Origin: Botryllus schlosseri
Taxonomy: Eukaryota
Assembly (NCBI GenBank): GCA_051294905.1
Contig: CM119372.1
Coordinates: 3,970,001 to 4,034,000, forward strand
Direction of reading: 5' to 3'
Length of the DNA: 64,000 nucleotides
Under the pieces are notes generated by a model that worked only from the letters and a program-made list of their open reading frames with translations, made no database searches and was not told where the DNA came from. The translations under genes and the position numbers were made by a program. Below, one piece after another: positions 7,080 to 46,849 of the stretch (the first letter of the stretch is position 1; every line of letters begins with the position of its first letter).

Positions 7080-8408
7080 CTACGCAAAATCACCCCGCTG
7101 ACTACTGAAATAAGAAACAAAATCATCCCTAATCTTCGTTGCCTCCTCTGTTGGACGTCTTCCCGCTCTTACAAGATTCCGCCAATGCGGTGCGGGTTGC
7201 TGTGGGGGTTCATCGCCATCGTTTGCCCCAAATGCAAGGTGATGTTGATCACCTGAAAGATAATTATGCAGGACAGTAGCTGCTTTTACGATATGGTCAG
7301 CATGTACAGGAGTGATTGCCAATGCCCTGCGAAACATTCTAAACCGGGACGACAAAATGCCAAATGCATTTTCTACAACATTCCTGGCTCGAGACAACCT
7401 GAAGTTATAATGCCTCCGCTCTGGGCAATTTAAATAGGAACCTGGAAACGGCCTCATAATATGCCTCTGCAGTGGGAAAGCTTCATCTGCAACGAAAACA
7501 TGAGGAATTGGACTTACACACCCAGGCAGGGGAGCATCTGATGGCAGATCTAGCTGAGCCGATGCTAAACGCTTTCCCAAAGCGGAGTTGCTGAAGCACT
7601 TACTATCATTAACCCTTCCATATTGGCCTACATCTACTGCAACAAACTTTCTGTCCGCATCAGCAACTGCCATCAGAACTATACTAAAAGTCTTTTTATA
7701 ATTAAAATACATTGATCCAGAATTTGCAGGCTTCTGAACGATCACATGTTTACCATCAATACTGCCAATACAATTAGGAAAGTTCCACTTATCTTTGAAT
7801 TGTGCCGCGTTCTCTATCCATTGTTCTTGTGTGGGTTCTGGCATGTAATCCGCTGCTAAAGCCTGCCAGATAGCCACACAAGTGTCCCGGATCAACTTGG
7901 CCACTGTTGACTTCCCGCACCGATACGAAAAAGCGATAGTTTGAAACGAATCACCAGTAGCCAGGAACCTAAAATAGTGAAAAATGCTTTTGTACAGGGA
8001 TTCTCAATTCAAATTTACTGTACACAGATGCCGTATATAGGCCTATACCACAGTTGTAAATTGGTTTCAACAATTTATATTGTAAAGATCAAATGGATAT
8101 ATGATTTACCTGAGAGTGATTGCCAGTCGTTCATTGGGAGGAATCGGTTTCCTCATCGCTGTCGTCTGCTTCGAAATGAGCGGGCCAACAATTGACAGAA
8201 GCTCGTCAAACTTGTCAGGTGTCATGCGGAAATATTGAAAGAAGGCTGCAGGTCTTTCGTATCTCATTTCCTGTGTTAGCCTGTACTCTCCAAGTTGATC
8301 CCTTCTCTGGAGAATGGGGTGAACCCAACAGGCCCGCCTCTTCTTTTGTTTCTTCTTCCTCCTTTCGTCCTTCTTTAGAGCCAAATAAAGTAAAGCCAGC
8401 AGGTCCAT
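7080..8408 (-). CDS. Harbinger (HARBI1-like) DDE transposase, ~395 aa; exons 8408-8110 and 7968-7080
   Basis: Motifs WVHPIL, YFRMTP, ERLAITLR/FLATGDS across a 141-bp GT-AG intron, catalytic IDGKH, ADEAFPL and VENAFG; reading frame intact; start codon uncertain (alternative ATG at 8462). Confidence 0.92.
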
Positions 8409-11853: not shown

Positions 11854-13033
11854 TCAGTGAATGATTGGATGACTATTGAAATAGTCGGTGTAGGCATTTC
11901 GAACGTTTTTTGCAATAGTAGTGGAATTTCCAGTATAATGATCCATCGAACGATCCTCAGGAATGATATCATCCGTAGAAGATTCGGTATAGTTGGGCGA
12001 ATGTTTGAGCAGAAAATTGTGGAGACAACAAATTGCCTTGACCATGTTATCCACATTTTCGACCTTTAGGGGGACAGGCTTTAGTAGAATCCGGAAACGT
12101 TGGACGAGGATGCCAAACGCATTCTCCACGACACGCCGTGCCCGAGATAGTCGTTTATTATAAACGTATCTCGGTTGGGCCAGGTATTTTCCAGGGTATG
12201 GTCTCATCAGGTGATATGATAGGGGGAAGGCTACATCGCCAACAAATACATATGGCAACGGAGGCTTTCCTGGCTCAACTTCCCGATCTGCAGGTAGCTG
12301 CAGTTCATTTGCAGCTAGTGCACGCCCAAATGGTGAATCGCGGAAAATTCCTCCATCCGATTCGCGTCCATAGCTTCCAACTTGAGCGAAACGGATCCTG
12401 TACTCTGCGTCAACAACCGCCATCAAAACCACACTGTAAGTTCCTTTGTAGTTGTAAAACAATGAACCACTATTTGCGGGACATTCCATCTGAACATGTT
12501 TCCCATCGATTGCTCCGACACAATTTGGGAACTGCCACAGTTCTTCAAACTTTTCTGCTATTTCAACCCACTCAGAAGCAGAGGATGGAGTTTTCATATA
12601 TGTCCATCGCAGGTTATTCCATAACGCCGCACAAGTCTCATGAACAATGTTACATACAGTTGAGCGGCCGAGGCGATATGATCCAGCGATTGTTCTGAAT
12701 GAGTCCCCATGCGCGAGAAATCTCAAAGTGACAGCCAATCTTTCCTCTACAGAAACAGCTTTCCTCCAGTTGGTATCGAGTTTGGCGATATCTTCTCCAA
12801 TCAGTTGGATTAGATAATGAAACTGCTGCATGTGGTTTCATCCGAAAGTAGTCGAAATAATGCGCTTCTCTTTCTAATTCATATTCCTTGACCAACCTGT
12901 GATATTCTCCTAGCTGTTCCCGCCGTTGTAAAATAGGATGCACCCAGATCGATCTGGCCTGCATCTTTTTTTTCAATCTTCTTCGAATGCACAAAATTGC
13001 CAAGGCTTTCTTCTGATCAGGAGTTAATATCAT
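11854..13033 (-). pseudogene. Harbinger DDE transposase, intronless, frameshifted near 12830
   Basis: N-terminal part (WVHPILQRR..YFRMKP) and C-terminal part (QQFHYL..IDGKH..GDVAFPL..VENAFG) are in different frames, separated by 4 extra bases. Confidence 0.9.
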
Positions 13034-14625: not shown

Positions 14626-14806
14626 ATGAATGACCTCACTAAACTCATTCGGTACTTTGCGTTGTGTACTGAAATACCGGCATCACGTATAACCAAATGT
14701 ATCGGGTAATGGCAACCCGAAACTATCGTTATGCTAAACTATCTCTACTTTTGAAGCCTTTAATTTTATTCACATTTTACTAAGGCACCATAGTAGGGTT
14801 GTTGAG

Positions 14807-16297
14807 ATGGCTAGTGCAGACGAACCAGCTGTATATCCCTCTAAGATAAAACGTAACCTCGACGGCACCCCGTGTAAGCTTGTGAAACGTTCCAAAATCT
14901 GGGAAATATTCCGTACCGTACCCGAAGAACCGAAAAAAGCAATCTGCGGAAAATGCGAGGCTGTCATATCTCGAGGCGGCGGTAGCGGAAAATCGCAATG
15001 CACCACGAATCTATGGAAACACTTGGAAAACAAGCACCCTGAATCATTCGCGGAAGCGTCAAAGTACAAAGAAACAATTAATCGAGCCGAACGCATAAAA
15101 CGCCACAATCCTGAGAACAGTAAAGCCTGGCGACTGTTTTCGGTGGCTGGTGACGACCCTTCTGTTATCAAGTGTTCAGAATGCGATATCGAAATAACTT
15201 GCGACCCTAGCGAGAGTAACACCACAGACGTTTTATGGTACCACATTATGACCGAGCACCAGTCCATGTACGACAAATGCGTGAGCGAGGCAATGATGGA
15301 GAACGTAGTTTCGACTCAGAAAGGCAAGCGATCGCTGGTGTGGTCAGAATTCACGCAGCACCCTATGGACTTTTGTAAAGTTATCTGCAACACATGCGAT
15401 ACTGTCGTATCACGCGGTACGACTAAAGAAAGCTTAAATACGACCAACATGCGACGGCATCTTATAAGCAGCTCGCATTTAGGCGCAGTACGAGACAAAG
15501 GGGTCGAATTAGGTAGGTTGCCTTTGGATAACGATACAAATATAACTGATGCAGTCTCGCCAAAGGCACGAAAACTTGATATTCAGAGTGATCACGGTAA
15601 CACCGACAAGAATCACCACGGTTGTAGTCAAACTAGCAACCTTATGGACGCTCAAACGCTTTTAATGCAGCGTCCAGTCGATTTATTTCACACAGGCTTG
15701 CTCGGACACGCGCTTTACGAACAGCAGAAGAATGGGATTTGCTGCGACTTTTCGATCGTGGTCCTAAACAAAAGCTCCCTGTCTTTCACGGACCAGGAGA
15801 GGAGCAGTCCCGAGATTTCGTCGGACGAGATAAAAATACACGGCTGTGTGGCGTCTGTCGTGTCGGAGAGTTTGAGGAAGACGATCGCGTCCGGCGAGCG
15901 ACAACTGAAACTAGCGGATATTCGCAAGCCTACCGTTGAACACTTTGTGGAGATCGCCTACACTGGGAAGCTGGACGTTATCAACGCGATGGGAATGAAT
16001 GAAGTGATAGAGGTCTACAAGGTCGCGAAATTACTCTGTGCTGATACAGTTGCAGCCTATGTGCAACGATCGTATCCGAATGTATCTTTTCGAACGAGCC
16101 GCGAGCAATTAAATTATGCAGTTACCAACCAGAATACCTCCAATCAGCAATCATTATCCTCGGCGCAAGAATCGAACGACAAAGGACACGAATACTCGCA
16201 ATCCATCACGCCAGCGCTGCCCAGTATTGTGCCGACAGCGAATAAGCGTAAGAATTATATGCCGAAATCGAACAGTAGTATGAAATTGGAGCAATGA
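14807..16297 (+). CDS. Protein with three BED zinc fingers followed by a BTB/POZ domain (496 aa)
   Basis: Three W..F..CxxC..T..H...H motifs (SKIWEIF..CGKC..NLWKHLENKH; SKAWRLF..CSEC..LWYHIMTEH; SLVWSEF..CNTC..NMRRHLISSSH) and BTB motifs CDFSIVV, IHGCVASVVS, FVEIAYTGKL; long uninterrupted ORF. Confidence 0.88.
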   Translation: MASADEPAVYPSKIKRNLDGTPCKLVKRSKIWEIFRTVPEEPKKAICGKCEAVISRGGGSGKSQCTTNLWKHLENKHPESFAEASKYKETINRAERIKRHNPENSKAWRLFSVAGDDPSVIKCSECDIEITCDPSESNTTDVLWYHIMTEHQSMYDKCVSEAMMENVVSTQKGKRSLVWSEFTQHPMDFCKVICNTCDTVVSRGTTKESLNTTNMRRHLISSSHLGAVRDKGVELGRLPLDNDTNITDAVSPKARKLDIQSDHGNTDKNHHGCSQTSNLMDAQTLLMQRPVDLFHTGLLGHALYEQQKNGICCDFSIVVLNKSSLSFTDQERSSPEISSDEIKIHGCVASVVSESLRKTIASGERQLKLADIRKPTVEHFVEIAYTGKLDVINAMGMNEVIEVYKVAKLLCADTVAAYVQRSYPNVSFRTSREQLNYAVTNQNTSNQQSLSSAQESNDKGHEYSQSITPALPSIVPTANKRKNYMPKSNSSMKLEQ

Positions 16298-28943: not shown

Positions 28944-29184
28944 CTGTACAGATCAATATTCGCTCGCCGTCATACATAGAATAAGTCATCAGACCATAAT
29001 AATACACGAGCCCTAATAAACAGTTCTTAGCGGATCAATAATGACGATTGAAACATCTTGATGTTTTAATTATCACCGCTGTGGGGCACATATAGATGCT
29101 TATTATTGCTAAATCATGACGTCGATAAGGGATGGTGCGAATACGGCAGTAGTTATGTAGATCGGTCGTGAGCGGCTATTGTTT

Positions 29185-29460
29185 CTTATGGCGGGGTGGC
29201 GATTCGCCTGGAAACCCGGGGTGGCGATTCGCCTCTTATCTCTTATGGCGGGGGTCGCGATTCGCCATGTGTTCTTATGGGTGCGGTCGTGATTCGCCTT
29301 TTCGGGTATAGGCCGCGGTCGTGATTCGCCGTGAAAACTCGTGGTCGTGACTCGCCTTTTTTGCTATAGGCGGTGGCGGCGATTCGCCTGTCGTGTATTC
29401 TTACGGGTTCTGTGGTGAGGTGCCATGTGTTCTTATGGATGCGGTCGTGATTCGCACTTT
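29185..29460. repeat. Subterminal GC-rich repeats (G(T/C)GATTCGCC core, ~30-bp spacing), mirrored at ~44550-44825
   Basis: About eight GATTCGCC-type motifs seen directly. Confidence 0.85.
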
Positions 29461-32400
29461 CAGGCATCTCTCGCGCGGTGTTGAATATGTACGAGTCACC
29501 AACAATAACCGCACAAACGGAAACGTGGCTTGTTGTGAGGATTAAGCAGTGCATACGTCCGTTTTGGAAATTCGGAGCGCGCACTATCGTATCGATTATT
29601 CCACTAATCCAGTAAGTACTATTACATACAGGAGTATTCAGTATTCAGCAACGACACGAAAAGCGACCAACAAATAACCGCACTCGTAAATTAACACCTA
29701 AAAAAGTGTAAAATAGATTGCAAATCCCGCGATCGCTAACAAGATAATGTCTCGGCTATAACCATTTAGTGACTTGGTGTTAAAGACATACCGATCGCTC
29801 ACAAGGTAATATTTCGGTAATTAGTTTGTCACAGAGCCGTCGCAGACGGTGATTCGAAAACCAACAATTTGACACTTTCTGGTGGTCGCTATATGTTTTG
29901 ACACTTCGAACAGCGGCTGACTTTAGTTGCACGATAAGAATCATGTGAATATACAAGTAATGTATCAATTTGTCAACTTGAAATGAAACTTACTACACAA
30001 ACCAAGTTGATTCGTATTTGAATGTGTTAATTCGGTACAATTCTAATTATTTTGAGAAATCTTTTGATTCGACCGTAACCTGAATATTACTGACGCCGAC
30101 TTTCAGCCGCATCGAATTATTCGCACATTCCGCGCCGCTGTTTTCACACTTATAGAATCAATACCAACTATAACTCTACAAGAATCAAGAATCACAAGTA
30201 TGTGCATTACACAGTTATTGTATTTATTAACTTGAAATCAAACTCTTAACAAAAACACGCAACTAATCATTTGCCAGCTCTAACATTATGAAAATCCTCG
30301 AGTCTTTATTTTTAAGAATGTTATAGTACGGTGTCGGAATCCATTCGTGGGATGTACTAAAGATAAATCCAGATAATTCAAAATGAAATATTTGGACTTT
30401 GACATAGTGTGAATTGAAATAGGATTGACAAACATGACTACCAACTTTGATCCAGTCACATTTCAAGATCATACTTCGAACCAAGTAATGTAACATTACA
30501 ACTCTATTCACGATCCTGCTTTCCGTTTGTCAAAGAGATATTTTAACATCTTACCATACTCAAAAGAATTATTCACAACATTAACAATTGTTAAAAATCT
30601 AGTTTTCACTTACTTGATTATATCACTGCAACTCATAAATTTGAATTAATTCATCCTGGTTGTATTCGTATGCTCGGTCTTTTTTATTCAATTGTAAAGG
30701 TCGTTACTATTCTGAAGACAAAGTAAGCTATTTACTAATCGACACATAAATGACTTGACATAAACATATTATATTTTGAGTACACGAGATTTGAATGTCT
30801 GAACAATAACTGAGAAATAATTTATCACAATAAAATCCGTATATTACAGCGTAAAAGATGTTTGAATGTCAGCAACTCTGTACGGTCATAGTTACTACCA
30901 CTAATTTACCCGACCAACTCGTCATGATCATTCCTGAAATCAACACAAATATGACCACTGACTTGAGTTAACCACAAAACAGCATCAAGTTTTAAATCCA
31001 CTTGTAGCTTACGGATTATTTGAATGCTGGTTATGTTTTGTTGTAATTGAGTTAACGGAAATAGTATTACGTCTCGACATCTTACCATCTTACCATATTC
31101 AAAGAATCAACCACGAAAACATTGTCAAGTAAATCCGTTACCCCGACCAACTCAAACAGTATCAGTATGAAAAACAGCCAAACATACACGAATCCATACA
31201 ATCACTAAAACCTAAAATCCATAACAAGCTTGGTTGTATTCAGATCCGTACACATCTTTTTTTATCCAGTTTGAAAAGTCGTAACTATTCTGTAAGATAG
31301 AGGAATTACTACTCGGTATATTTTGTAAGACCAAAAGTAATTACTTCTCAGTGTCGGCGACTTGAGATTAACATAATATGTTTGAGTATACGAGATTTGA
31401 CAGTCTGATCATCGTAGTTTCTTACAATCGAGCACAGGTGTGATATCAAAATTATCATGATGTAAACATAGGGATTGACACATTGATTTGACATATGAGA
31501 TTTTGTAATTGTTGATCGTTACTTTATTATTAATTGTTTGCGTTAATTAGACCCGGTGTTGTGGTAAATGTTATGACAGCAACAAACTTTTCAGTACCAA
31601 TGTTATTAACATATTAAGCTGTAAACTATGTGTGTCTGAAATGTTCTTGATAGGAAAATTACTCCACCTTGGTAAAAATCACTCTGCGTATCGCGGATAT
31701 CAGAAAATATTTCCAGTAACCAAGACTAAGACTTTGATTATTACAAAAGTAAATTGTGATATGTTTGTTAGATGCATCCAATTGAACTAGAAGTGTCTAG
31801 TGCCCAACACTCGTAATATCAAAAAAGTACTTGCTACACTGTAATTCACTTAACGTGTTTTGCATTGTTGTTCATTTGTAGTATTGATTGTTTTTGAACC
31901 TCCAAATAATAATTTCCGACATGAAACCAAACCGCCGAAAGTCGTTACCATCACAACGAAACAATTTGTACGATGTTTGTCAAATGTATCCTATAGTTAG
32001 GTGTACTAGAATCACTGGTCCAACACATACACCGAAAATGCAATCGAAATTTTCCCCATTGTCATTCGTCAAAGTAAAGGTCGTCACAATACTCAACCCA
32101 TAAAAGATCTTACTTGTATGTGATTGAATCGCAGGTAATTAACCCACTAAATCAAACCATAAGGAAATTTCACTCACTCATCGGATATGAAACAGCGTCA
32201 CTTAATCGGCGTAGATCGTTTTACTAAATGCAAATCATACCTGACCAACAGAAAACAATTTTCACTTACCTTGTAATGAAACCAAGTGGTGGGCCTTCGT
32301 TCAATATTTTGTCTGTGTCAAATACTTTGTAATAAACACAATGGAGTGGTTGAGCTTTACATCATCAAGCTGTCATTAATAAATCAAGATTTCGGTAAAC

Positions 32401-33924
32401 TTGTAAATGTATCGTTTAACTAACCGAGTTGTATGCACAGTTTGATATTTTTGTCATTTAGTGATTGCTGAACATACCACTTCGAAATACTGCGTTGATC
32501 TCAATCCCCTTTGTCCTGATAATCGAAGTACTTTTTGTTTTGAATTCATAACAATCGGATTTTCTATGACATGATAAATTAGAAGATTTAGAAGATTGGT
32601 TGCATATCACTAAAAATAATATACCACACATATTATTACTGTTACTCCATTCATCGGTATTTTTTCCGTTGTCGATTTTCAAACGAGTAAAATTTATTAC
32701 TTGAGTTGCTCTGCTTACTATATTTAAATGTAAACTCACCCGTCTTTCAACAACAAACAATGTTAAAAAGTATGCAATCAAACACAACAAGTTTTACGAT
32801 ACTAATTATTATCCCACATAACCCATTTCTTACCGAAGACATATGAAATATATTCATGTTACAAGAAAATATTCGCTCATGCTACAAACCTGTACAATGA
32901 TTGGTGGTGCTTTCAAACTGTTTCGATACCTCAAGAACTTTATCATCTGAATGGTTGTTCATGTATCGTAATAATCAAGTATTTCAACACAGAACTAGTA
33001 TTAACAGAAACACCAGAGTTGTTTACACAAAAGTTTGTGTGTGTACAGTATGCGAATACCATGTGTAAGTCCAGCACAATTGTGGTATCCATACGAGTTT
33101 AGTTAACACAATTTACGACACCGAGGTCGCCTCATCTTTCGTAAGACAACAAACCAAGGCTTCAGGATATGTCCATGTCATAACAATAAATCAGCTACTC
33201 CAACAACAGAGTACATACGTTTTCTAGTTACGGTGCTTACATCTTACACACAAATCGACCTACTTTGCAAACGAAAAGCGCTGAGTCATCACAACAATAC
33301 AACTAAAACATACTATCATACAAATTGGTCGTTATAGTTTACCCACCAACGATACATCGTACAAGTAGCAAGTCTCGAGAATCCAGTTTTTCAAAAAACG
33401 TGAAAGTGTTTCTACACCAAGTCGGTATGTTGACGAAAGCATATATTGTAATATCATGATCGATTTGCATTCGTTGGTCACAAACTGTCACTACTCTAAA
33501 TAATTATTTTTCACTCAAAGCATACTTATCGCCAATCGTTTTCATCAAGCACGAGTTCAAGAAACCTGCTGCGACATGAATTGTTATTTTTATGTTGTGT
33601 AAATAGGTAATAATTAATTTTAGTAACACTATATCAACATCATCGAGTTGTGCGAATAGATTTACATGTGGTCTTGTGGTTTTAATCGAAGTATACAGCA
33701 CGGTCTAATGTAGAGTCATCTCTATTGTACAACAACTCGGTAATCGAAATGCATTAAAATTTAAACAACGATCTTGGTTCGTCGCACCAAAAATATGTTT
33801 ACTATCACGATACTCTACACAGGCCGTGTAAATCCTTTTCACACTCGTAATAGTATACCAACAGCTACCGGCGACAACGTTTAACAATACCAACGACACT
33901 AAACATACGATACCTACCCAAGTA

Positions 33925-34625
33925 AAATTTCCATTTTCACCTGGAGATCGGTCGTAACCCAAGTAGAAATACCATTGTCCTTTGGAGATTTATCGTTTAC
34001 CCAGTGTAACAAACCCCTTTTCCTTTGGTAATCTATTTTTCTCTGGGTAACAATCCTTTTTCACTTGGAAATATATTTTTTCTCTGGTTAACAATCCTTT
34101 TTCACTTGGAAATATATTTTTTCTCTGGTTAACAATCCTTTTTCACTTGGAAATATATTTTTTCACTGGGTAACAAACCTTTTTCACTTGGAAATATATT
34201 TTTTCTCTGGTTAACAAACCTTTTTAACTTGGAAATATATTTTTTCTCTGGGTAACAAACGTTTTTCACTTGGAAATATATTTTTTCCCTGGGTAACAAT
34301 CCTTTTTTTCTCTTGGTAATAAACCTTTTTCACTTGGAAATATATTTTTTCTCTGAGTAACAAACCTTTTTCACTTGGAAATATATTTTTTCTATGGGTA
34401 ACAAACCTTTTTCACTTGGAAATATATTTTTTCTCTTGGTAATAAACCTTTTTCACTTGGAAATATATTTTTTCTCTGGATAACAAACCATTTTCACTTG
34501 GCGGGTCGTCGTTTACCTTAGTAAAAATATCATTTTCCTTTGGAGATCCGGCGTTTACCCAGGGTAACAATACATTTTCTCTTGGCCATCTAGCTTTTCC
34601 CACAGTAACAAAATCATTTTCATTT
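33925..34625. repeat. 41-bp tandem array (two ~20-21-bp subunits), mirrored at ~36962-37662
   Basis: GGGTAACAA(T/A)CCTTTTTCACTTGGAAATATATTTTTTCTCT at 34045, 34086, 34127 etc., decaying at both edges. Confidence 0.92.
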
Positions 34626-37600
34626 TGAAATCTGACAATTTGATATTTTTGTATATTGTTACAACAGATAGCGACAAAATATACACCAACAACAACTCCA
34701 ATACATTTGTGTAATCGCATATTCACTTGTGCTGATGCAACCCATCAAAATCATCGGTTACCCACATGCAATGTGCTGTTGTACATCGACGTTTATGTTT
34801 TTGGAAAATTGGACAATAGGCTTCGATAGTTCTGTGATGTCCGGGCTCGTGCTTTGGATTTTCCAGAGTCAAAATGTCTGAATAAAACACCTCCTTGACG
34901 ATGGTTGGTATGTGGATAACGGTGTTCGGAAAACGATTGGATTTATGTCACCCATCGCGATAACAATTCCAGGTCGAGTTTTCCCCCGCGTGTTTACTAT
35001 ATTGTGTCTTTATTGGTCATGTATGTCTCGACATTCAGTTTGAAATCGGAAACCCTGATAAAGTATGTAACCGGATCCGGATATCAACTCTGAATCGATA
35101 AACCAATGAACAATATTCAAAGTAAACATGTTACACCCTGTGTTTCCACGAAAAAATACCATCCAGACATACGTCGCGCTTGTTTGCCCACATCAGTATA
35201 CGCATAAATGGAGGTGTGTGACATTGCATGCAATGTGTTGGTATACAAACATCGATCCACAGACATTATCATAGCCGGTAGTTTTGATGTAGATCGAATG
35301 TCATCACACCCGATAACAATACCAATAAGCCACATTGCAATGACTCTGAGTCAATCTGAAGCATGACATACAGACACACAAACATGGAACCCTAACATGG
35401 GTTATTCACACGACGGTGAAAGTGAACCATACAGCATATACCAATAGGGCGTTCACAGTCGAATATGCGAACCATGCACAATCATATACCCTGGTTTTTG
35501 TTGGATATGTACGAAACCAATAAATCGATACATTTCTGTTCCTTCTACGTCAATAATACAAGCGTCATTCCAATGCATCGCTCGAATGTAAGGTTCGTCG
35601 GGTGTAAAATCCATGTCAAATAACACCAAAGTGTGCTTTCCGTGTTTTATTATTTCCACCGACGCTTCTTGTCTGTGTCGTAACACTATGGTGCGGGGAG
35701 TTGAAAAACGGTGGATTGTGAAACGGATTGACATGACCAACTGAATCGACGTCAATAGACTTGTGATGACAGTTTCAAAATGATACCGATCTCTTGTGGT
35801 GATGACCGTTTCGAAATGTAACCGGACGAACTGAATCCTTACGATGATGTGTTTTATGATTGCGTGTGAAATCACGAGGTAGTGTTCTATTGTGGTGTAC
35901 GATTGCAGTCTTCATTCCACAGAAACATACCTTATTGGATCACAATATCAGTCCGACATTTGCACGATATTTATCCGGAGTCGTTATGTGGGAGTAGCGA
36001 CATCCATTGATCGTGACTGAAAGACTGATCGCAATCATTTCGAGCACCGTACTTCGATAGTTCACCTAGAACAAACGCTGCAGCAGAAAACTTCGGTGTC
36101 GACAACACGATGGATATTGACCGATGTATCCAATTGATCTGGGTGGTCCGTCTACAGATAGGGTCATGACTATCTTGCGATAAAACCATCGAGTAAATCA
36201 ATGAACGGTGTCGAAATAGCGATGTAATAGCGCAGACTCAGAGTCATTGCAATGTGGCTTATTGGTATTGTTATCGGGTGTGATGACATTCGATCTACAT
36301 CAAAACTACCGGCTATGATAATGTCTGTGGATCGATGTTTGTATACCAACACATTGCATGCAATGTCACACACCTCCATTTATGCGTATACTGATGTGGG
36401 CAAACAAGCGCGACGTATGTCTGGATGGTATTTTTTCGTGGAAACACAGGGTGTAACATGTTTACTTTGAATATTGTTCATTGGTTTATCGATTCAGAGT
36501 TGATATCCGGATCCGGTTACATACTTTATCAGGGTTTCCGATTTCAAACTGAATGTCGAGACATACATGACCAATAAAGACACAATATAGTAAACACGCG
36601 GGGGAAAACTCGACCTGGAATTGTTATCGCGATGGGTGACATAAATCCAATCGTTTTCCGAACACCGTTATCCACATACCAACCATCGTCAAGGAGGTGT
36701 TTTATTCAGACATTTTGACTCTGGAAAATCCAAAGCACGAGCCCGGACATCACAGAACTATCGAAGCCTATTGTCCAATTTTCCAAAAACATAAACGTCG
36801 ATGTACAACAGCACATTGCATGTGGGTAACCGATGATTTTGATGGGTTGCATCAGCACAAGTGAATATGCGATTACACAAATGTATTGGAGTTGTTGTTG
36901 GTGTATATTTTGTCGCTATCTGTTGTAACAATATACAAAAATATCAAATTGTCAGATTTCAAAATGAAAATGATTTTGTTACTGTGGGAAAAGCTAGATG
37001 GCCAAGAGAAAATGTATTGTTACCCTGGGTAAACGCCGGATCTCCAAAGGAAAATGATATTTTTACTAAGGTAAACGACGACCCGCCAAGTGAAAATGGT
37101 TTGTTATCCAGAGAAAAAATATATTTCCAAGTGAAAAAGGTTTATTACCAAGAGAAAAAATATATTTCCAAGTGAAAAAGGTTTGTTACCCATAGAAAAA
37201 ATATATTTCCAAGTGAAAAAGGTTTGTTACTCAGAGAAAAAATATATTTCCAAGTGAAAAAGGTTTATTACCAAGAGAAAAAAAGGATTGTTACCCAGGG
37301 AAAAAATATATTTCCAAGTGAAAAACGTTTGTTACCCAGAGAAAAAATATATTTCCAAGTTAAAAAGGTTTGTTAACCAGAGAAAAAATATATTTCCAAG
37401 TGAAAAAGGTTTGTTACCCAGTGAAAAAATATATTTCCAAGTGAAAAAGGATTGTTAACCAGAGAAAAAATATATTTCCAAGTGAAAAAGGATTGTTAAC
37501 CAGAGAAAAAATATATTTCCAAGTGAAAAAGGATTGTTACCCAGAGAAAAATAGATTACCAAAGGAAAAGGGGTTTGTTACACTGGGTAAACGATAAATC

Positions 37601-39981
37601 TCCAAAGGACAATGGTATTTCTACTTGGGTTACGACCGATCTCCAGGTGAAAATGGAAATTTTACTTGGGTAGGTATCGTATGTTTAGTGTCGTTGGTAT
37701 TGTTAAACGTTGTCGCCGGTAGCTGTTGGTATACTATTACGAGTGTGAAAAGGATTTACACGGCCTGTGTAGAGTATCGTGATAGTAAACATATTTTTGG
37801 TGCGACGAACCAAGATCGTTGTTTAAATTTTAATGCATTTCGATTACCGAGTTGTTGTACAATAGAGATGACTCTACATTAGACCGTGCTGTATACTTCG
37901 ATTAAAACCACAAGACCACATGTAAATCTATTCGCACAACTCGATGATGTTGATATAGTGTTACTAAAATTAATTATTACCTATTTACACAACATAAAAA
38001 TAACAATTCATGTCGCAGCAGGTTTCTTGAACTCGTGCTTGATGAAAACGATTGGCGATAAGTATGCTTTGAGTGAAAAATAATTATTTAGAGTAGTGAC
38101 AGTTTGTGACCAACGAATGCAAATCGATCATGATATTACAATATATGCTTTCGTCAACATACCGACTTGGTGTAGAAACACTTTCACGTTTTTTGAAAAA
38201 CTGGATTCTCGAGACTTGCTACTTGTACGATGTATCGTTGGTGGGTAAACTATAACGACCAATTTGTATGATAGTATGTTTGAGTTGTATTGTTGTGATG
38301 ACTCAGCGCTTTTCGTTTGCAAAGTAGGTCGATTTGTGTGTAAGATGTAAGCACCGTAACTAGAAAACGTATGTACTCTGTTGTTGGAGTAGCTGATTTA
38401 TTGTTATGACATGGACATATCCTGAAGCCTTGGTTTGTTGTCTTACGAAAGATGAGGCGACCTCGGTGTCGTAAATTGTGTTAACTAAACTCGTATGGAT
38501 ACCACAATTGTGCTGGACTTACACATGGTATTCGCATACTGTACACACACAAACTTTTGTGTAAACAACTCTGGTGTTTCTGTTAATACTAGTTCTGTGT
38601 TGAAATACTTGATTATTACGATACATGAACAACCATTCAGATGATAAAGTTCTTGAGGTATCGAAACAGTTTGAAAGCACCACCAATCATTGTACAGGTT
38701 TGTAGCATGAGCGAATATTTTCTTGTAACATGAATATATTTCATATGTCTTCGGTAAGAAATGGGTTATGTGGGATAATAATTAGTATCGTAAAACTTGT
38801 TGTGTTTGATTGCATACTTTTTAACATTGTTTGTTGTTGAAAGACGGGTGAGTTTACATTTAAATATAGTAAGCAGAGCAACTCAAGTAATAAATTTTAC
38901 TCGTTTGAAAATCGACAACGGAAAAAATACCGATGAATGGAGTAACAGTAATAATATGTGTGGTATATTATTTTTAGTGATATGCAACCAATCTTCTAAA
39001 TCTTCTAATTTATCATGTCATAGAAAATCCGATTGTTATGAATTCAAAACAAAAAGTACTTCGATTATCAGGACAAAGGGGATTGAGATCAACGCAGTAT
39101 TTCGAAGTGGTATGTTCAGCAATCACTAAATGACAAAAATATCAAACTGTGCATACAACTCGGTTAGTTAAACGATACATTTACAAGTTTACCGAAATCT
39201 TGATTTATTAATGACAGCTTGATGATGTAAAGCTCAACCACTCCATTGTGTTTATTACAAAGTATTTGACACAGACAAAATATTGAACGAAGGCCCACCA
39301 CTTGGTTTCATTACAAGGTAAGTGAAAATTGTTTTCTGTTGGTCAGGTATGATTTGCATTTAGTAAAACGATCTACGCCGATTAAGTGACGCTGTTTCAT
39401 ATCCGATGAGTGAGTGAAATTTCCTTATGGTTTGATTTAGTGGGTTAATTACCTGCGATTCAATCACATACAAGTAAGATCTTTTATGGGTTGAGTATTG
39501 TGACGACCTTTACTTTGACGAATGACAATGGGGAAAATTTCGATTGCATTTTCGGTGTATGTGTTGGACCAGTGATTCTAGTACACCTAACTATAGGATA
39601 CATTTGACAAACATCGTACAAATTGTTTCGTTGTGATGGTAACGACTTTCGGCGGTTTGGTTTCATGTCGGAAATTATTATTTGGAGGTTCAAAAACAAT
39701 CAATACTACAAATGAACAACAATGCAAAACACGTTAAGTGAATTACAGTGTAGCAAGTACTTTTTTGATATTACGAGTGTTGGGCACTAGACACTTCTAG
39801 TTCAATTGGATGCATCTAACAAACATATCACAATTTACTTTTGTAATAATCAAAGTCTTAGTCTTGGTTACTGGAAATATTTTCTGATATCCGCGATACG
39901 CAGAGTGATTTTTACCAAGGTGGAGTAATTTTCCTATCAAGAACATTTCAGACACACATAGTTTACAGCTTAATATGTTAA

Positions 39982-42400
39982 CCCGATCGAAACGGCCGGC
40001 CTCAAGTCCAAATTTCAATGCATTTAGTAAAATGTTCATAAAATCTGAACCACGGGAGTTGAACCGACACCCAATATATCGCTGTAATCGTGAAACAGCC
40101 GCCTAACCAACTGAGCTACTCTCAAAGCGAGAGAGAAACAGGTGATGCCCCTATACCAAGAAGTGTTCTCAACTTTTAGAAAATAAAAGAGAATTTGATT
40201 TTTGAATTTGCGACTACGTCATACAAAGACCTGCTCGGGATAGAATCATCGCCTGACTGATTTCGCAAGGATATCAGGATTCTAAAATGACCTGAGTGAG
40301 GTTCTTACGATAATACAATCGAGAGTAACGACCGCTGATATAGCGATGGCTACAGTTGGATATAGCGCGATTGATGCCAGGCGTCTCGCATTCGGCGCAC
40401 ATACACGCGCCGTGAGTTATTCTAGTATCGACGACGTTCAATGATTCATTTCACCGCGCCGGTGTATATATTAGCTTTGTACGAGTTACTAAGTACTAGA
40501 TAGTGCTTTGTCGAAACACACCTTGCTCTTGTACAACAACTAGAACTGAATATATAGTGGTTGGATTGACAGGTAGTCATACCTGCAATATAAAATACAG
40601 TGTTTCACTGATATTTTACTGGGCATTTGAAAAAAGATTAGGTCATATTATGCAAGCCTTTTATCGATAATCGTGATGTACACAATCGCTTTGAGACAAG
40701 GGCTGTCTATTGAACAAATAGGCATTTTGAAAACCCAGTGTTCACGACATGCGCACCGCAGCAATCAGCTTCGAAGTGCACAACTCGACCGCTGACTCTA
40801 CACACCTATTTTATTCGCTAATTTGACAATGGACATTGGACATTCAGCCATATTTTGCTTTTGTTCTCTACCATGGGCCAGATCTGAAACATTTTCACCA
40901 GAAGTGAAGCCATTTACGGACATAACTTTGCTGTCATATCGATTGCGCGTTGGAGATCTTGTAGCTCGTTGCACATATCATGCTGGTAATGCTGTATTAG
41001 TATAAAAAGCAGCAATCGATATGCGTAATCTGTAACAGCGAATCTGCGCTAATCACAACAGCAAATATATTACCGCGTGTTATTGTTTGGGTAATAACAT
41101 AGTATCGCGGACGTTCAAATGATTCATTTCACTACGTCGGTATATGTAATCGCTTGTCTATCCTTTGTACGAGTTAGTGCCATGTGTTGAAACTAACATT
41201 GCTGTTGTACAACACGCGCATCGCAGCAATCAGTTTCGAAGTGCGTTCGTGACCGCAGACTCTACATACCTCGATCCGCTAAATTGAAAATCGACATTCA
41301 ACCATATTTTTGTAAAAGAATTTATTGCATGGCGCAATATATCATGAAATAATGCACCACGTGTGTAATGCAATAGCAAATCGAAATAATAACAAACCAG
41401 CACATCTAGCACCAACACATGGAAAAACGTAAGAAACCATTATAGCATTGGCAACTGAAGTTATTGCAATTATATTCGTTGCCCACACTGCAATGATAAT
41501 AGGTCAACTGCTTTGACAGAGTTACGCCGAATTTTCTTGCCTCTCTCGTGAATCATGGACGAATAAAATACTTTGAATCAAGAAAGTGCATTGATTAGAT
41601 GGAACCGGGATTTGATGCCTGGCTTTGCTGGTCGTCAAATTTTCATAAATGACCTGCGCGTTGTGGACGGAAATCTCGAGCAGACACGAAAATACTTTTC
41701 AATACCAGAATCGCGACCGGAGCATTGATGTGCCGGTGCATTTCTTTTTATTCGCTACTACGGGAAAGACGTGAAACATTTCCACCAGAAGTGAAGCCAT
41801 TTACGGACATAAATTTGCTGTCATATCAATAGCGGAGATCTTGTAGCTCGCTGAAGAACATCATGGCAGTATTGGTGTATTAGTATGAATAGCAAAAATA
41901 TTCAATATGCGTAATCTTCAACAGCAACAGAAAATACATTGCTAAAACCCGCGCATGTTATTTCGTAACATAATTTTACTTCCAGTTCGAAGAATCTTCT
42001 GTGCGACTAATTTTTGATTATAAGTATTCCAATAGATGGGCAATGGGCATAACCAGCACATGTTAGGAGAAAAGATCTGCAAATGAATTTGATGTCTCGG
42101 AGATGCGCTGATTTAGGTCACGGGCGCTGGTTTATCTCACGCGCGCACATTCACGCGAACGTCGTGGCGAATTGTATTTTGCGCAAAACGTTTTTATGTA
42201 TTCAATCTGCATTTTGAACAGGCTATTCGATAGTATAAGATGTTATTTATGGCTCGACGTATGCGTATTGATAATAGCTATCCATCTGTAATAGTTGTAA
42301 TTGTCTACGACCAGAACAACCCAGGAAATTTTGGATTAAGTAAAGCGTGTTCGTGAAAATACGCTCAGTAATCATTAATGAGTGTGCCGTTTCGATCGGG
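39982..42400 (-). mobile_element. piggyBac-like non-autonomous element (2419 bp) in the right arm
   Basis: Perfect 15-bp TIR CCCGATCGAAACGGC; TTAA duplicated (39978-39981, 42401-42404); single empty TTAA at 31606-31609 in the left arm. Confidence 0.93.
40043..40126 (-). ncRNA. tRNA-like Pol III unit, homolog of 5612-5694
   Basis: Minus strand: TAGCTCAGTTGG A box, GCTGT/ACAGC stem, GGTTCAACTCCC B box, TTTT downstream. Confidence 0.6.
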
Positions 42401-44896
42401 TTAATAACATTGGTACTGAAAAGTTTGTTGCTGTCATAACATTTACCACAACACCGGGTCTAATTAACGCAAACAATTAATAATAAAGTAACGATCAACA
42501 ATTACAAAATCTCATATGTCAAATCAATGTGTCAATCCCTATGTTTACATCATGATAATTTTGATATCACACCTGTGCTCGATTGTAAGAAACTACGATG
42601 ATCAGACTGTCAAATCTCGTATACTCAAACATATTATGTTAATCTCAAGTCGCCGACACTGAGAAGTAATTACTTTTGGTCTTACAAAATATACCGAGTA
42701 GTAATTCCTCTATCTTACAGAATAGTTACGACTTTTCAAACTGGATAAAAAAAGATGTGTACGGATCTGAATACAACCAAGCTTGTTATGGATTTTAGGT
42801 TTTAGTGATTGTATGGATTCGTGTATGTTTGGCTGTTTTTCATACTGATACTGTTTGAGTTGGTCGGGGTAACGGATTTACTTGACAATGTTTTCGTGGT
42901 TGATTCTTTGAATATGGTAAGATGGTAAGATGTCGAGACGTAATACTATTTCCGTTAACTCAATTACAACAAAACATAACCAGCATTCAAATAATCCGTA
43001 AGCTACAAGTGGATTTAAAACTTGATGCTGTTTTGTGGTTAACTCAAGTCAGTGGTCATATTTGTGTTGATTTCAGGAATGATCATGACGAGTTGGTCGG
43101 GTAAATTAGTGGTAGTAACTATGACCGTACAGAGTTGCTGACATTCAAACATCTTTTACGCTGTAATATACGGATTTTATTGTGATAAATTATTTCTCAG
43201 TTATTGTTCAGACATTCAAATCTCGTGTACTCAAAATATAATATGTTTATGTCAAGTCATTTATGTGTCGATTAGTAAATAGCTTACTTTGTCTTCAGAA
43301 TAGTAACGACCTTTACAATTGAATAAAAAAGACCGAGCATACGAATACAACCAGGATGAATTAATTCAAATTTATGAGTTGCAGTGATATAATCAAGTAA
43401 GTGAAAACTAGATTTTTAACAATTGTTAATGTTGTGAATAATTCTTTTGAGTATGGTAAGATGTTAAAATATCTCTTTGACAAACGGAAAGCAGGATCGT
43501 GAATAGAGTTGTAATGTTACATTACTTGGTTCGAAGTATGATCTTGAAATGTGACTGGATCAAAGTTGGTAGTCATGTTTGTCAATCCTATTTCAATTCA
43601 CACTATGTCAAAGTCCAAATATTTCATTTTGAATTATCTGGATTTATCTTTAGTACATCCCACGAATGGATTCCGACACCGTACTATAACATTCTTAAAA
43701 ATAAAGACTCGAGGATTTTCATAATGTTAGAGCTGGCAAATGATTAGTTGCGTGTTTTTGTTAAGAGTTTGATTTCAAGTTAATAAATACAATAACTGTG
43801 TAATGCACATACTTGTGATTCTTGATTCTTGTAGAGTTATAGTTGGTATTGATTCTATAAGTGTGAAAACAGCGGCGCGGAATGTGCGAATAATTCGATG
43901 CGGCTGAAAGTCGGCGTCAGTAATATTCAGGTTACGGTCGAATCAAAAGATTTCTCAAAATAATTAGAATTGTACCGAATTAACACATTCAAATACGAAT
44001 CAACTTGGTTTGTGTAGTAAGTTTCATTTCAAGTTGACAAATTGATACATTACTTGTATATTCACATGATTCTTATCGTGCAACTAAAGTCAGCCGCTGT
44101 TCGAAGTGTCAAAACATATAGCGACCACCAGAAAGTGTCAAATTGTTGGTTTTCGAATCACCGTCTGCGACGGCTCTGTGACAAACTAATTACCGAAATA
44201 TTACCTTGTGAGCGATCGGTATGTCTTTAACACCAAGTCACTAAATGGTTATAGCCGAGACATTATCTTGTTAGCGATCGCGGGATTTGCAATCTATTTT
44301 ACACTTTTTTAGGTGTTAATTTACGAGTGCGGTTATTTGTTGGTCGCTTTTCGTGTCGTTGCTGAATACTGAATACTCCTGTATGTAATAGTACTTACTG
44401 GATTAGTGGAATAATCGATACGATAGTGCGCGCTCCGAATTTCCAAAACGGACGTATGCACTGCTTAATCCTCACAACAAGCCACGTTTCCGTTTGTGCG
44501 GTTATTGTTGGTGACTCGTACATATTCAACACCGCGCGAGAGATGCCTGAAAGTGCGAATCACGACCGCATCCATAAGAACACATGGCACCTCACCACAG
44601 AACCCGTAAGAATACACGACAGGCGAATCGCCGCCACCGCCTATAGCAAAAAAGGCGAGTCACGACCACGAGTTTTCACGGCGAATCACGACCGCGGCCT
44701 ATACCCGAAAAGGCGAATCACGACCGCACCCATAAGAACACATGGCGAATCGCGACCCCCGCCATAAGAGATAAGAGGCGAATCGCCACCCCGGGTTTCC
44801 AGGCGAATCGCCACCCCGCCATAAGAAACAATAGCCGCTCACGACCGATCTACATAACTACTTACGGCACATAAAATTGTACCGAGGAACTCTTAC

Positions 44897-44940
44897 TCTG
44901 TCTTAGAAGAGTTTTCTCTGCTGCAAATCGACCCATGCAT
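44897..44940 (-). CDS. Candidate first coding exon of the EF-hand gene (MHGSICSRENSSKT-E)
   Basis: ATG plus 44 nt ending in phase 2 at a GTAAGA donor; joins in frame to the CAG acceptor at 28944 and the open frame upstream of ATG 28849. Confidence 0.5.
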
Positions 44941-46849
44941 GTAGGCCTACTTGTTTCGCTGTCGGTGGCAATTTAGTGTCCATTTCTGCACTAGATTTCT
45001 GTTGATAATGCATTGCATATTGGCCTACCTGCAGTGTTATTCAACGTTTTTTCGGATTATGATATTAAGATAAAAAGCAAATGAAAATTGGATATAGATC
45101 GATACTGAGAAAACGTAAATTCCACATTTTCGATTGGGACATGGAATCTGGAGTTCTGGTTACACACAAATCCAGCATATTGGCTATGCACAGGGAACTC
45201 GGAGTGCGGAGTGCGGATGCGGAATGCGGAGATGCGAGATGGATATAAACGTGTTATTTGGAATTACGATAAGAAGAGGATCTATGATTTGCATTTGAAG
45301 TTTTAAAATGGACCATGATTTGGATTTGGTGCCGTCTCGAATTCGACCGCAGTCAGGATGCAAATTCTGCAGCTACAATTTTTATAATTTATTGCTGCCT
45401 AATGTGGAAAACCAAGCCCATGTATCTTCCACTGCAAAACTTTGTCGCTATGCAATCAATCTGAATGTACTTAATTTCTTGCATTGAGTCGGTTAATCAT
45501 CGGAAGTTTTGTCACAAATTGTCAAGTAAGAAAGTGGCAGGGAGGCAGAATACGTTTGTGTTATATGGCAATCGATTCCGTATGCATCGATAAATCTATA
45601 AGTCATTATCATAACGATCCAAATGCAGCGTAATCGATCTAATCATCGCATTCATTATAGTGGGGTGTTCTTTGACGAATCTCACCCAGTTCAAACAGGT
45701 GCTATTGAACACCCCGGAGGTGTGGTCGTGCACCCGTTAAGATCCTTCTCCGTTTACAGGTGTGTTTTAGCAATTATCACTCAACACTTTGAAGTGAAAT
45801 TGGGAAAATATGCACCCAAAACGTGTATGGACTGCAAACCTAATCGTTCACGTGGTTGAGTGTGGTGTATGGTTGCATTTAAAACAAACATGTTTAAAAC
45901 AATGCCCTTGCTCAAATCGTGTTTTTTATTGTGTTTTTTAAGCCATGACGTCTCGAATATTCTGTTGTGACGTCATGATGGATTTACATTGACAATTGAA
46001 AATATAGGGTAAATATAGCTCCTTTGACGAAATATCTATACTATTGCTGTTGAACTGACTATTTTGAGGGTTCCAGACATCCCGTATCGATATACGTCGG
46101 CTATATCGGGTAGCTGTCCGTAGGCTCATACAACATGTTTTTTGGAAAGTATTTACACGACCATGGCATAACTTCACGACCTATTTTTTTTAAATAGGCC
46201 TTTGTTTAAAACGCTGTTTAAAGCATGATTTAAACAAAGTGTTTTAAAACACCGTTTGTTTTAAATGCAACCCTAGCGGTGTAGTGCCATGAAGCAACAA
46301 TTATTCCGTGAATCCTCAATAATGATATTTTTAAAAACTGATATAAATGCTGCTGTACTCACGAGAGAGGAGCGAACAGATCGAACTCCAAAAGCTGAAA
46401 ATTTTCCATAAGGATGTCACAGGATAACGTGGATTATGAATGGAATTTTAATATTTCCGTTATGGGAGTCACGAAATGCAATCAAATTTGCAGGCTTTGC
46501 ATATATGACCTACAAAAGTCATATACTATATAAATATATACTTAATACGAATGCATGAATAAAAATATGTAGAATGGCGACAGAGCAGCTATAGTTACAT
46601 ACACGGCGGTATAGTTGCGAGCGGAGGCGATGTTAGGAAGACAAATTTGGGTGGGCCGCTTTGCTCAATGACAGTTATAACTATAGCATATATAGAGCAG
46701 GGAAAATTAAAGTATAGGTCGCGAAGGGTGTAAATTTGGGTCGAGACCTTCCCAGAGCGATCTTTTATTATATATTGTATATCTGCTGAATTTCTTGCAG
46801 CAACTATACTTCTTCACGCGATCTCCTGTGGCTGGTTTGTACAATGTAC

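Follow-up and report, generated by a model that had tools for sequence, protein, structure and literature searches.

Palindromic elements with Maverick/Polinton ends in the Botryllus schlosseri genome: a probable helper-dependent family

The window, by which we mean the whole stretch of DNA analysed here, comprises 64,000 bp of the Botryllus schlosseri genome (assembly GCA_051294905.1, contig CM119372.1, forward-strand positions 3,970,001 to 4,034,000). Our subject is the element at window positions 29148-44862, which is about 95% palindrome and has the terminal motif of the Maverick/Polinton transposons, together with the family of such palindromes to which it belongs in the host assembly (eukaryotic, 495 Mb in 219 contigs).

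The element at 29148-44862

The element begins with AGTAGT at the left and ends with ACTACT at the right, and the hexamer TACGGC flanks both ends as a target-site duplication (TSD). An inverted-repeat search returned two blocks, I1 (31606-35352 against 36235-39981, 3,747 nt) and I2 (29148-31610 against 42400-44862, 2,463 nt), and direct comparison of the arms found a single mismatch, at position 33305, in 6,205 bp. Without a nested insertion the element would measure 13,292 bp (2 x 6,205 + 882); the interval is 15,715 bp instead because that insertion, of 2,419 bp, splits the right arm. A preliminary description of this DNA had listed these termini, the TSD, the arm length and the 882-bp spacer, and direct reading and the inverted-repeat search confirmed them all. 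The features are as follows, where TIR stands for terminal inverted repeat and ORF for open reading frame.

29142-29147, no strand: left TSD copy TACGGC, read directly, matching the hexamer at 44863-44868
29148-35352, + strand: left arm, 6,205 bp, from the inverted-repeat blocks, one mismatch against the right arm
29148-29388, + strand: terminal cis region with the (AGT)2 end, the motif AGTAGT-N6-GATCG[GC]TCG and seven subterminal repeats; mirrored at 44622-44862
34006-34501, + strand: 41-bp tandem array in the left arm (Tandem Repeats Finder); mirrored at 37086-37581
35353-36234, no strand: unique central spacer or loop, 882 bp (inverted-repeat search)
35453-35734, - strand (codons 35456-35734): conserved ORF of 93 codons plus stop, protein P0001, its frame conserved in spacer types A and B
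36235-39981, - strand: inner part of the right arm, 3,747 bp, block I1, one mismatch against the left arm
39982-42400, no strand: nested non-coding insertion, 2,419 bp, piggyBac-type and non-autonomous by its TIRs and TTAA duplication
42401-44862, - strand: outer part of the right arm with the right terminus, 2,462 bp, block I2, no mismatch against the left arm
44863-44868, no strand: right TSD copy TACGGC, read directly

The seven subterminal repeats, of the form G-N-G-R-Y-TCGCC, start at element positions 52, 77, 110, 142, 174, 200 and 232. Deeper in each arm lies about 0.5 kb of tandem array (Tandem Repeats Finder: period 41, 7.4 and 4.8 copies, 91-92% matches).

Coding capacity is small. 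The longest open frame in the interval has 152 amino acids, none of the 75 stop-to-stop frames of at least 45 amino acids in the left arm and spacer matches Pfam at E<=0.01, a tblastx comparison with a local Maverick (on contig C1, described below) found no coding remnant in the element, and Rfam and tRNA scans of 29000-45000 found nothing. The preliminary description had reported no recognisable ORF; that stands for Polinton genes, but the spacer does hold the conserved ORF of 93 codons. Polintons are defined by the protein-primed DNA polymerase of family B (pPolB) and the integrase, according to passages of PMC5499653. By its gene content the window element is not an autonomous Polinton: pPolB, integrase, ATPase, protease and capsid genes are all lacking, and its TIRs reach 6.2 kb. 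With none of these enzymes it would have to be mobilised in trans, as the preliminary description supposed.

Family size and architecture

A search of the genome with the terminal 300 bp gave many matches of 91-100% identity, in inverted pairs 13-15 kb apart. The motif AGTAGT-N6-GATCG[GC]TCG occurs genome-wide 967 times in forward and 959 times in reverse orientation, against 0 and 2 occurrences for the reversed control. Pairing the first 100 listed termini (contig C1) by hand yielded 39 pairs and 22 singles, with 23 of the 39 pairs 12.8-15.5 kb apart. Roughly 1,000 copies may thus exist, a figure good to the order of magnitude (hundreds to about 1,000), and we estimate that the family covers 2-3% of the 495-Mb assembly, by extrapolation from the counts of the terminal motif and the loop ORF.

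Twelve copies were read: the one in the window, 10 selected among the best terminal matches, and one 24-kb terminus pair. All 12, at loci on 8 contigs, are palindromes with arms of 6.1-6.9 kb, and each is flanked by a perfect 6-bp TSD of its own, different from the rest. The same palindrome with a different TSD was present at all 11 other loci read, which the preliminary description had named as a sign of a structure that moves; the palindrome therefore transposes as a unit. Counting elements of every kind that we read, palindromic or not, the 6-bp TSD is perfect in 16 of 16. We note that CG occupies TSD positions 3-4 in nine of these 16 (e.g. TACGGC, AACGTG, TACGTC, CGCGTC), which may reflect a weak target preference of the integrase.

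The subterminal G-N-G-R-Y-TCGCC repeats number 7-9 per copy and keep near-fixed positions in all 12 palindromes, some of which have one or two starts that are added or displaced, while the arm interior has none. Three types of spacer were found, of about 880-930 bp (type A, five copies including the window), about 660-990 bp (type B, five copies) and 332 bp (two copies). Spacers of one type can be aligned over their entire length, in either orientation, at 87-99% identity; the window spacer matches those of four other copies end to end in this way, at 87-97%. The junctions between arm and loop are therefore inherited, not redrawn with each copy. The preliminary description had taken the window element for the product of a single template switch, and this part of it must be given up, since the junctions and spacers have been passed on through a family of about 1,000 copies.

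A simple inverted dimer of a TIR-bounded monomer was also considered and dropped; the centre is a unique, gene-bearing loop, with no TIR-TIR junction.

Perfect palindromes are a known artefact of some long-read libraries, and a palindromic chimeric read or a collapsed repeat could in principle have produced the window structure. The recurrence of the structure with different TSDs at 12 of 12 loci on 8 contigs speaks against this, as do the approximately 960 paired termini and the fold-back joint itself (35352 joined to 36234, on opposite strands), which two public runs, from as many studies, contain in their short-read contigs. We regard the assembly-artefact explanation as effectively refuted. 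The spacer was also seen in runs of a second organism (organism B, one study), where about half of the sampled words were present; the family is therefore not limited to one species label.

We also note some unusual arrangements: (i) At C1:16768420-16810237, three terminus pairs are nested, 14.6 kb within 28.7 kb within 41.8 kb, which suggests that family members have inserted into one another more than once. (ii) Terminus pairs spaced 16.8-18 kb are present on contigs C1 and C9. (iii) Two non-palindromic relatives, of 6.6 kb (TIR 878 bp) and 3.3 kb (TIR 375 bp), have 6-bp TSDs and carry the arm-interior sequence once. Descent between the palindromes and these short relatives could have run in either direction.

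Maverick relatives in the same genome

A complete Maverick lies at C1:5923771-5942033 (18,263 bp, TSD GCCGAG), with TIRs of 443 bp that are 99.5% identical and the same 21-nt terminal motif as the palindromes. Its long ORFs all lie on one strand. They include a pPolB of 1,214 amino acids (PF03175, E 5.5e-8, above the cut-off), an integrase with rve and chromodomain (E 2.7e-16), a P-loop ATPase with weak A32-like matches, and a capsid-like ORF of 432 amino acids whose nearest ESM-Atlas clusters carry DJR-like_dom (score 0.98). A protein query for pPolB across the genome gave 437 candidates, of which 38 were scored, and 34 of these 38 are free of stops. A profile search of the genome for PF03175 returned no match, a false negative when set against these 38 copies; searches of this genome with Pfam families can give false negatives for diverged viral polymerases.

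A second Maverick-type copy, at C4:12062501-12077432 (TSD TATGCC, TIR 557 bp), is closer to the palindromes at its ends. Its termini are 93% identical to the terminal 300 bp of the window element, and its eight subterminal repeats occupy the positions that they have in the palindromes. Directly inward lie stretches that match the Maverick right end (91% over 1,480 bp), the left end, and a portion of the capsid-like ORF (95.5% over 950 bp). There are two Maverick-type left ends in this region, C4:12083828 and 12062501, 21.3 kb apart with the same flank and terminal sequence, which suggests a segmental duplication that included the element.

Sequence is shared beyond the termini as well. In some copies about 1 kb of the outer arm shows homology to one end of a Maverick, at 89-93%. 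In particular, a 1,045-bp segment inside the right TIR of the C1 Maverick is 88-89% identical to the outer arms of several palindromes, at both of their ends, and this same segment adjoins pPolB genes at no fewer than 10 loci (at least 10). The palindrome at C4:17839968-17854466 has about 0.5 kb of Maverick left-end sequence inside both termini, several other palindromes have right-end sequence there, and the window copy has little Maverick end sequence in its outer arm beyond the TIR. From these alignments, the satellites seem to exchange end modules with their helpers and then to symmetrise them. The earlier proposal that the arms were copied from one end of a Polinton genome may hold for the outer arm of some copies, but for about 4.7 of the 6.2 kb no Polinton origin could be detected.

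In vertebrate Mavericks the ends carry the (AGT)2 motif, the TSDs are of 6 bp, and the TIRs measure 46-1,447 bp among 134 intact elements; their size is constrained to 16.9 +/- 1.7 kb (PMC8097293). The assignment of the window termini to Maverick/Polinton, made in the preliminary description from the (AGT)2 motif and the 6-bp TSD, is thus upheld, and both traits are shared with the Maverick-type copies of this genome. The same holds for its remark that autonomous relatives lack such long TIRs, those of the local Maverick-type copies being only 443 and 557 bp. Shared termini, insertion at many sites and TSDs of the helper's length were all found, and they point to a non-autonomous Maverick derivative.

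Subterminal repeat arrays are typical of cut-and-paste elements, and the palindromes might instead be foldback transposons of some other superfamily, moved by a transposase of their own and only Maverick-like at their ends. The fully read autonomous Maverick, with its different repeat, would fit such an origin, as would the fact that most of the arm is not Maverick-like. [quoted passage not shown] We consider a foldback transposon of this kind very improbable.

Identity of the arms

Arm identity within a copy is 99.79-99.98% in nine of the 12 copies. The other three are lower, at about 97%, at about 90-94%, and, in one rearranged copy, at 96-99.9%. Between copies, left arms are only 77.6-92.5% identical, over just 2.4-5.4 kb that can be aligned, apart from one pair at 97.1%. 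Divergence is also unevenly spread: the window and C16 copies agree at 97% in the terminal 0.4 kb, at 93% over 2.9 kb and at 82-84% elsewhere, with unalignable sequence between, and this mosaic pattern is identical in both arms. Arms that are near-identical within copies, yet diverged and mosaic between copies, must therefore evolve in concert within each lineage.

The timing can be narrowed. With perfect TSDs in 12 of 12 copies, most of the divergence between copies therefore precedes insertion, and the intact TSDs argue that these copies are young insertions. The three copies with decayed arms show that arm identity is lost after insertion. By analogy with long terminal repeats, we infer that arm identity may be set during, or just before, each round of propagation.

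Gene conversion keeps the arms of sex-chromosome palindromes and the inverted repeats of plastids alike, and arms of 6 kb less than 1 kb apart are good substrates for it. Conversion in situ between the close inverted arms, independent of replication, could thus maintain their identity in a family that would still depend on Mavericks, and identities of 99.8-100% within copies against 78-92% between copies fit this well. Four observations do not: (i) perfect TSDs in all 12 copies would be unlikely had 8-22% divergence arisen in place; (ii) arms at 90-98% in three of the 12 copies mean that identity decays in place; (iii) both the window copy and the one at C5:19387327-19411589 have large insertions in one arm only, with flanks that are 100% identical; and (iv) a mosaic that is the same in both arms would need exchange between elements followed by symmetrisation. 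We therefore hold in-situ conversion to be an unlikely source of the identity.

The loop gene

Spacers of the first two types can be aligned with each other over about 250 bp only, with some 75% identity, and this segment is the ORF, of 91-93 codons with a Met start in both; its frame is conserved in types A and B. The ratio of nonsynonymous to synonymous divergence (dN/dS) is 0.20-0.39 in all nine A-versus-B pairs (Fisher p 3.6e-8 to 6.7e-4, dS about 0.8-1.3), which are not independent of each other, and 0.14 in the one within-type pair. These ratios indicate that the loop ORF is evolving under purifying selection.

The ORF is abundant: a first look gave 1,192 candidates, of which 150 were scored, at 90-100% amino acid identity. 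A stop was counted by hand in 41 of these 150. In most of those 41 the reported open frame (105 amino acids) exceeds the length of the match; the stop therefore lies at the very end, as in the loop-ORF copies that end two codons early. Where the listed matches on contig C1 include both the ORF and a terminus, the two are about 6.5-7 kb apart. It is absent from the copies with 332-bp loops, and therefore is not required in cis.

P0001 has no Pfam match. Its relatives are one twin at 98% identity (word-index search) and one of 91 amino acids at 68% (exhaustive search). P0001 matches WD40-repeat proteins weakly and in several stretches (E 1e-7 at best) but not Pfam WD40 itself, and a resemblance to a beta-propeller blade is a weak lead only. 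The ESM Atlas gave scores of at most 0.88, to unrelated small proteins, and an AlphaFold model built on eight sequences was unusable (pLDDT, the predicted local distance difference test, 40.5). IMG/VR holds no relative of the ORF. A search of IMG/VR for the terminal pattern gave 27 single internal matches, none paired or at contig ends, which we take as chance. The JGI metagenomes gave three weak matches to the ORF, and the one locus examined encodes a high-GC protein of 323 amino acids on a bacterial-looking, unrelated contig. Among the runs listed for the spacer none is recorded as RNA. Two runs with a guessed RNA label contain the spacer at a depth at least that of the arms, unlike the DNA run; depth is unsuited to ranking here, and we conclude nothing from it.

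The loop gene also bears on how palindromes arise. Each could in principle arise anew, in every round or on many separate occasions, by copy-back or inverted dimerisation of a short, non-palindromic defective Maverick; this would extend the template switch of the preliminary description to a recurrent event. A fresh copy-back would yield perfect arms, the non-palindromic relatives (TIRs 375 and 878 bp) share the arm interior, and twice 6.6 kb is close to the modal 13.3 kb. The presence of three loop types and of arm lengths from 6.1 to 6.9 kb would also be accounted for, as would Maverick left-end sequence at both ends of some copies and right-end sequence in others. Yet within a loop type the spacers of copies 3-13% apart can be aligned over their full length, and the loop gene has been under purifying selection across types at dS about 0.8-1.3. 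Moreover, the 6.6-kb relative has no homology to the loop ORF (P0001 matched none of its sequence), and among the 39 hand-paired C1 pairs there are 23 of 12.8-15.5 kb, against two verified short forms. Recurrent formation is, in our judgement, improbable, while the ancestor of the family could reasonably have come from an event of copy-back or inverted dimerisation.

Proposed mechanism

The best reading of the window interval is one recent insertion of a helper-dependent Maverick/Polinton derivative, later struck by a piggyBac-type element. Its core, that the palindromes form a Maverick-dependent, inherited family moved in trans, we put at a probability of about 0.7.

A cycle can be envisioned as follows. 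We infer that the Maverick integrase, acting on the shared ends, would integrate the element in trans, and that the helper's protein-primed, strand-displacing polymerase would copy it. The displaced single strand would fold into a 6-kb hairpin, an extreme form of 'panhandle' or 'racket', and the arms would be made identical again in every cycle, either by mismatch correction within the stem or by copying one arm anew off the other. We give this resetting of the arms about even odds. The repeat at the end motif is, according to PMC8097293, the expected signature of 'jumping-back'. The length of 13-15 kb, or 72-82% of the 18.3-kb helper, might be held by a capsid packaging limit despite heavy turnover by insertion and deletion. 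In adenovirus, helper-dependent genomes that fall under about 75% of the wild-type length undergo rearrangement, and a vector of 15 kb was packaged as direct and inverted dimers (PMC4189039); on this analogy a packaging limit on the satellite is possible, if somewhat short of an even bet. The loop protein would serve the satellite, perhaps by binding the satellite's own subterminal repeats, a guess that is the weakest step.

Taken furthest, the family could be a true satellite virus of Mavericks: a palindromic linear genome of 13-15 kb, replicated by the helper polymerase and encapsidated in the helper's capsids, in which a giant single-strand hairpin proof-reads arm against arm in each cycle and the 93-amino-acid protein, bound to the subterminal repeats of the satellite, diverts helper replication or packaging. 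We rate this extended version as speculative and on balance doubtful. If it were true, arm identity, the length limit and diversity would be a natural read-out of Maverick strand displacement and virions.

Several observations weigh against a Maverick-dependent family, or against parts of the proposed cycle. Regarding the helper, the fully read C1 Maverick has a different subterminal repeat (CACATCGTAC-like, with only one GTGATTCGCC). Of the C4 copy, 3.3 kb was read at either end; it falls 3.4 kb short of the C1 copy in length and carries one internal deletion or more. No copy is thus established as both complete and the cognate helper, C1 having been read fully and C4 at its ends only. Of the four other pPolB copies on contig C1, three lack the terminal motif at their flanks, and about 4.7 of the 6.2 kb in each arm is without nucleotide or translated similarity to the C1 Maverick. 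Regarding the loop protein, it has neither an informative relative nor a usable model, and two of the 12 copies, those with 332-bp loops, do without the ORF. Regarding the cycle, replication, hairpins, packaging and expression are drawn from pattern and from analogy, gene conversion in situ between inverted repeats so close together could likewise hold the arms identical, and, the identities being taken from assembled sequence, assembly polishing could have inflated them.

Nested insertion and neighbouring genes

The insertion at 39982-42400 has TIRs of 15 bp (CCCGATCG... / CCCGATCGAAACGGC, beginning CCC) and is bounded by TTAA at 39978-39981 and 42401-42404. It is confined to the right arm, and the left arm has the empty TTAA site. 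No long ORF lies within it, and ARAGORN and Rfam show no RNA gene there. piggyBac elements duplicate a TTAA target, have CCC...GGG termini and carry a transposase gene. By its ends and target site the nested element is a later piggyBac-type insertion, at most a non-autonomous member of that group.

The region upstream of the palindrome is rich in transposons. Two ORFs on the minus strand of the window, at 7080-8003 (307 amino acids) and 11854-12837 (327 amino acids), match DDE_Tnp_4 (E about 6e-33) and are PIF/Harbinger-type transposases. An open frame of 519 amino acids at 14738-16297 on the plus strand encodes a pair of zf-BED fingers (E 5.8e-22) and matches BTB weakly; it may be a gene that was domesticated or came from a transposon.

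Comparison with known systems and significance

The palindromes share with autonomous Polintons/Mavericks the (AGT)2/(ACT)2 ends, the 6-bp TSD, the possession of TIRs, and TIR and subterminal sequence; they differ in lacking the pPolB, integrase, ATPase, protease and capsid genes, in the 6.2-kb length of the TIRs and in their high copy number.

Foldback (FB-type) transposons are likewise mostly inverted repeat with a short unique middle. Their arms consist of short tandem subrepeats throughout, and their target duplications are of 9 bp. The palindromes, in contrast, have mostly unique arms, with a single 0.5-kb array of 41-bp units in each, along with 6-bp TSDs and Maverick ends.

Copy-back or snap-back defective viral genomes have the same order of arm, loop and arm, and in their stems lies the genome end on which replication depends. 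In the palindromes, however, the junctions are inherited, only the outer <=1.5 kb of the stem is recognisably helper-derived, and there is an ORF of their own under selection.

A parallel in form is the helper-dependent ('gutless') adenovirus genome. According to PMC4189039, it too is a protein-primed linear double-stranded DNA without enzymes of its own that is propagated by a helper, it reaches a packageable length through inverted duplication, as the palindromes may, and it has a repeated cis element beside the terminal repeat. These vectors, like the subgenomic DNA of incomplete adenovirus particles, are products of the laboratory or of a single infection, which have neither genes of their own nor a germ-line history, while the palindrome family is chromosomally integrated, ancient and diversified, has a conserved gene, and is known here from sequence alone. 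Satellites of the virophage or transpoviron kind are also small linear DNAs with TIRs and few genes that depend on a larger virus-like element; there is no relation in sequence or genes, and the helper of the palindromes would be an endogenous Maverick, not a giant virus.

In the full-text literature searched we found no palindromic or high-copy non-autonomous Maverick family; Repbase and the founding 2006 paper fall outside that scope, and a library entry is possible. Wording about non-autonomous or derived Polintons is applied to Tlr1 elements in PMC5499653, and 'Polinton-derived' occurs elsewhere, in papers whose abstracts deal with virophages, Polinton-like viruses and Teratorn. Non-autonomous copies were apparently absent in a lizard (PMC3014272). 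The palindromes would be one of the few documented instances in which a non-autonomous Maverick family has been successful, and they carry a gene of their own. At roughly 1,000 copies of 13 kb they are also hazards for genome assembly and repeat classification.

Mavericks are thought to be protein-primed, capsid-packed viruses whose virions and replication intermediates have not been observed (PMC8097293). The palindrome family offers an indirect and testable genomic signature of both strand-displacement replication and encapsidation, in elements that are about 95% palindrome, whose arms are reset while lineages diverge, and whose length is about three quarters of the helper's. The palindromes may thus serve as a natural and abundant reporter for these two open questions of Maverick biology.

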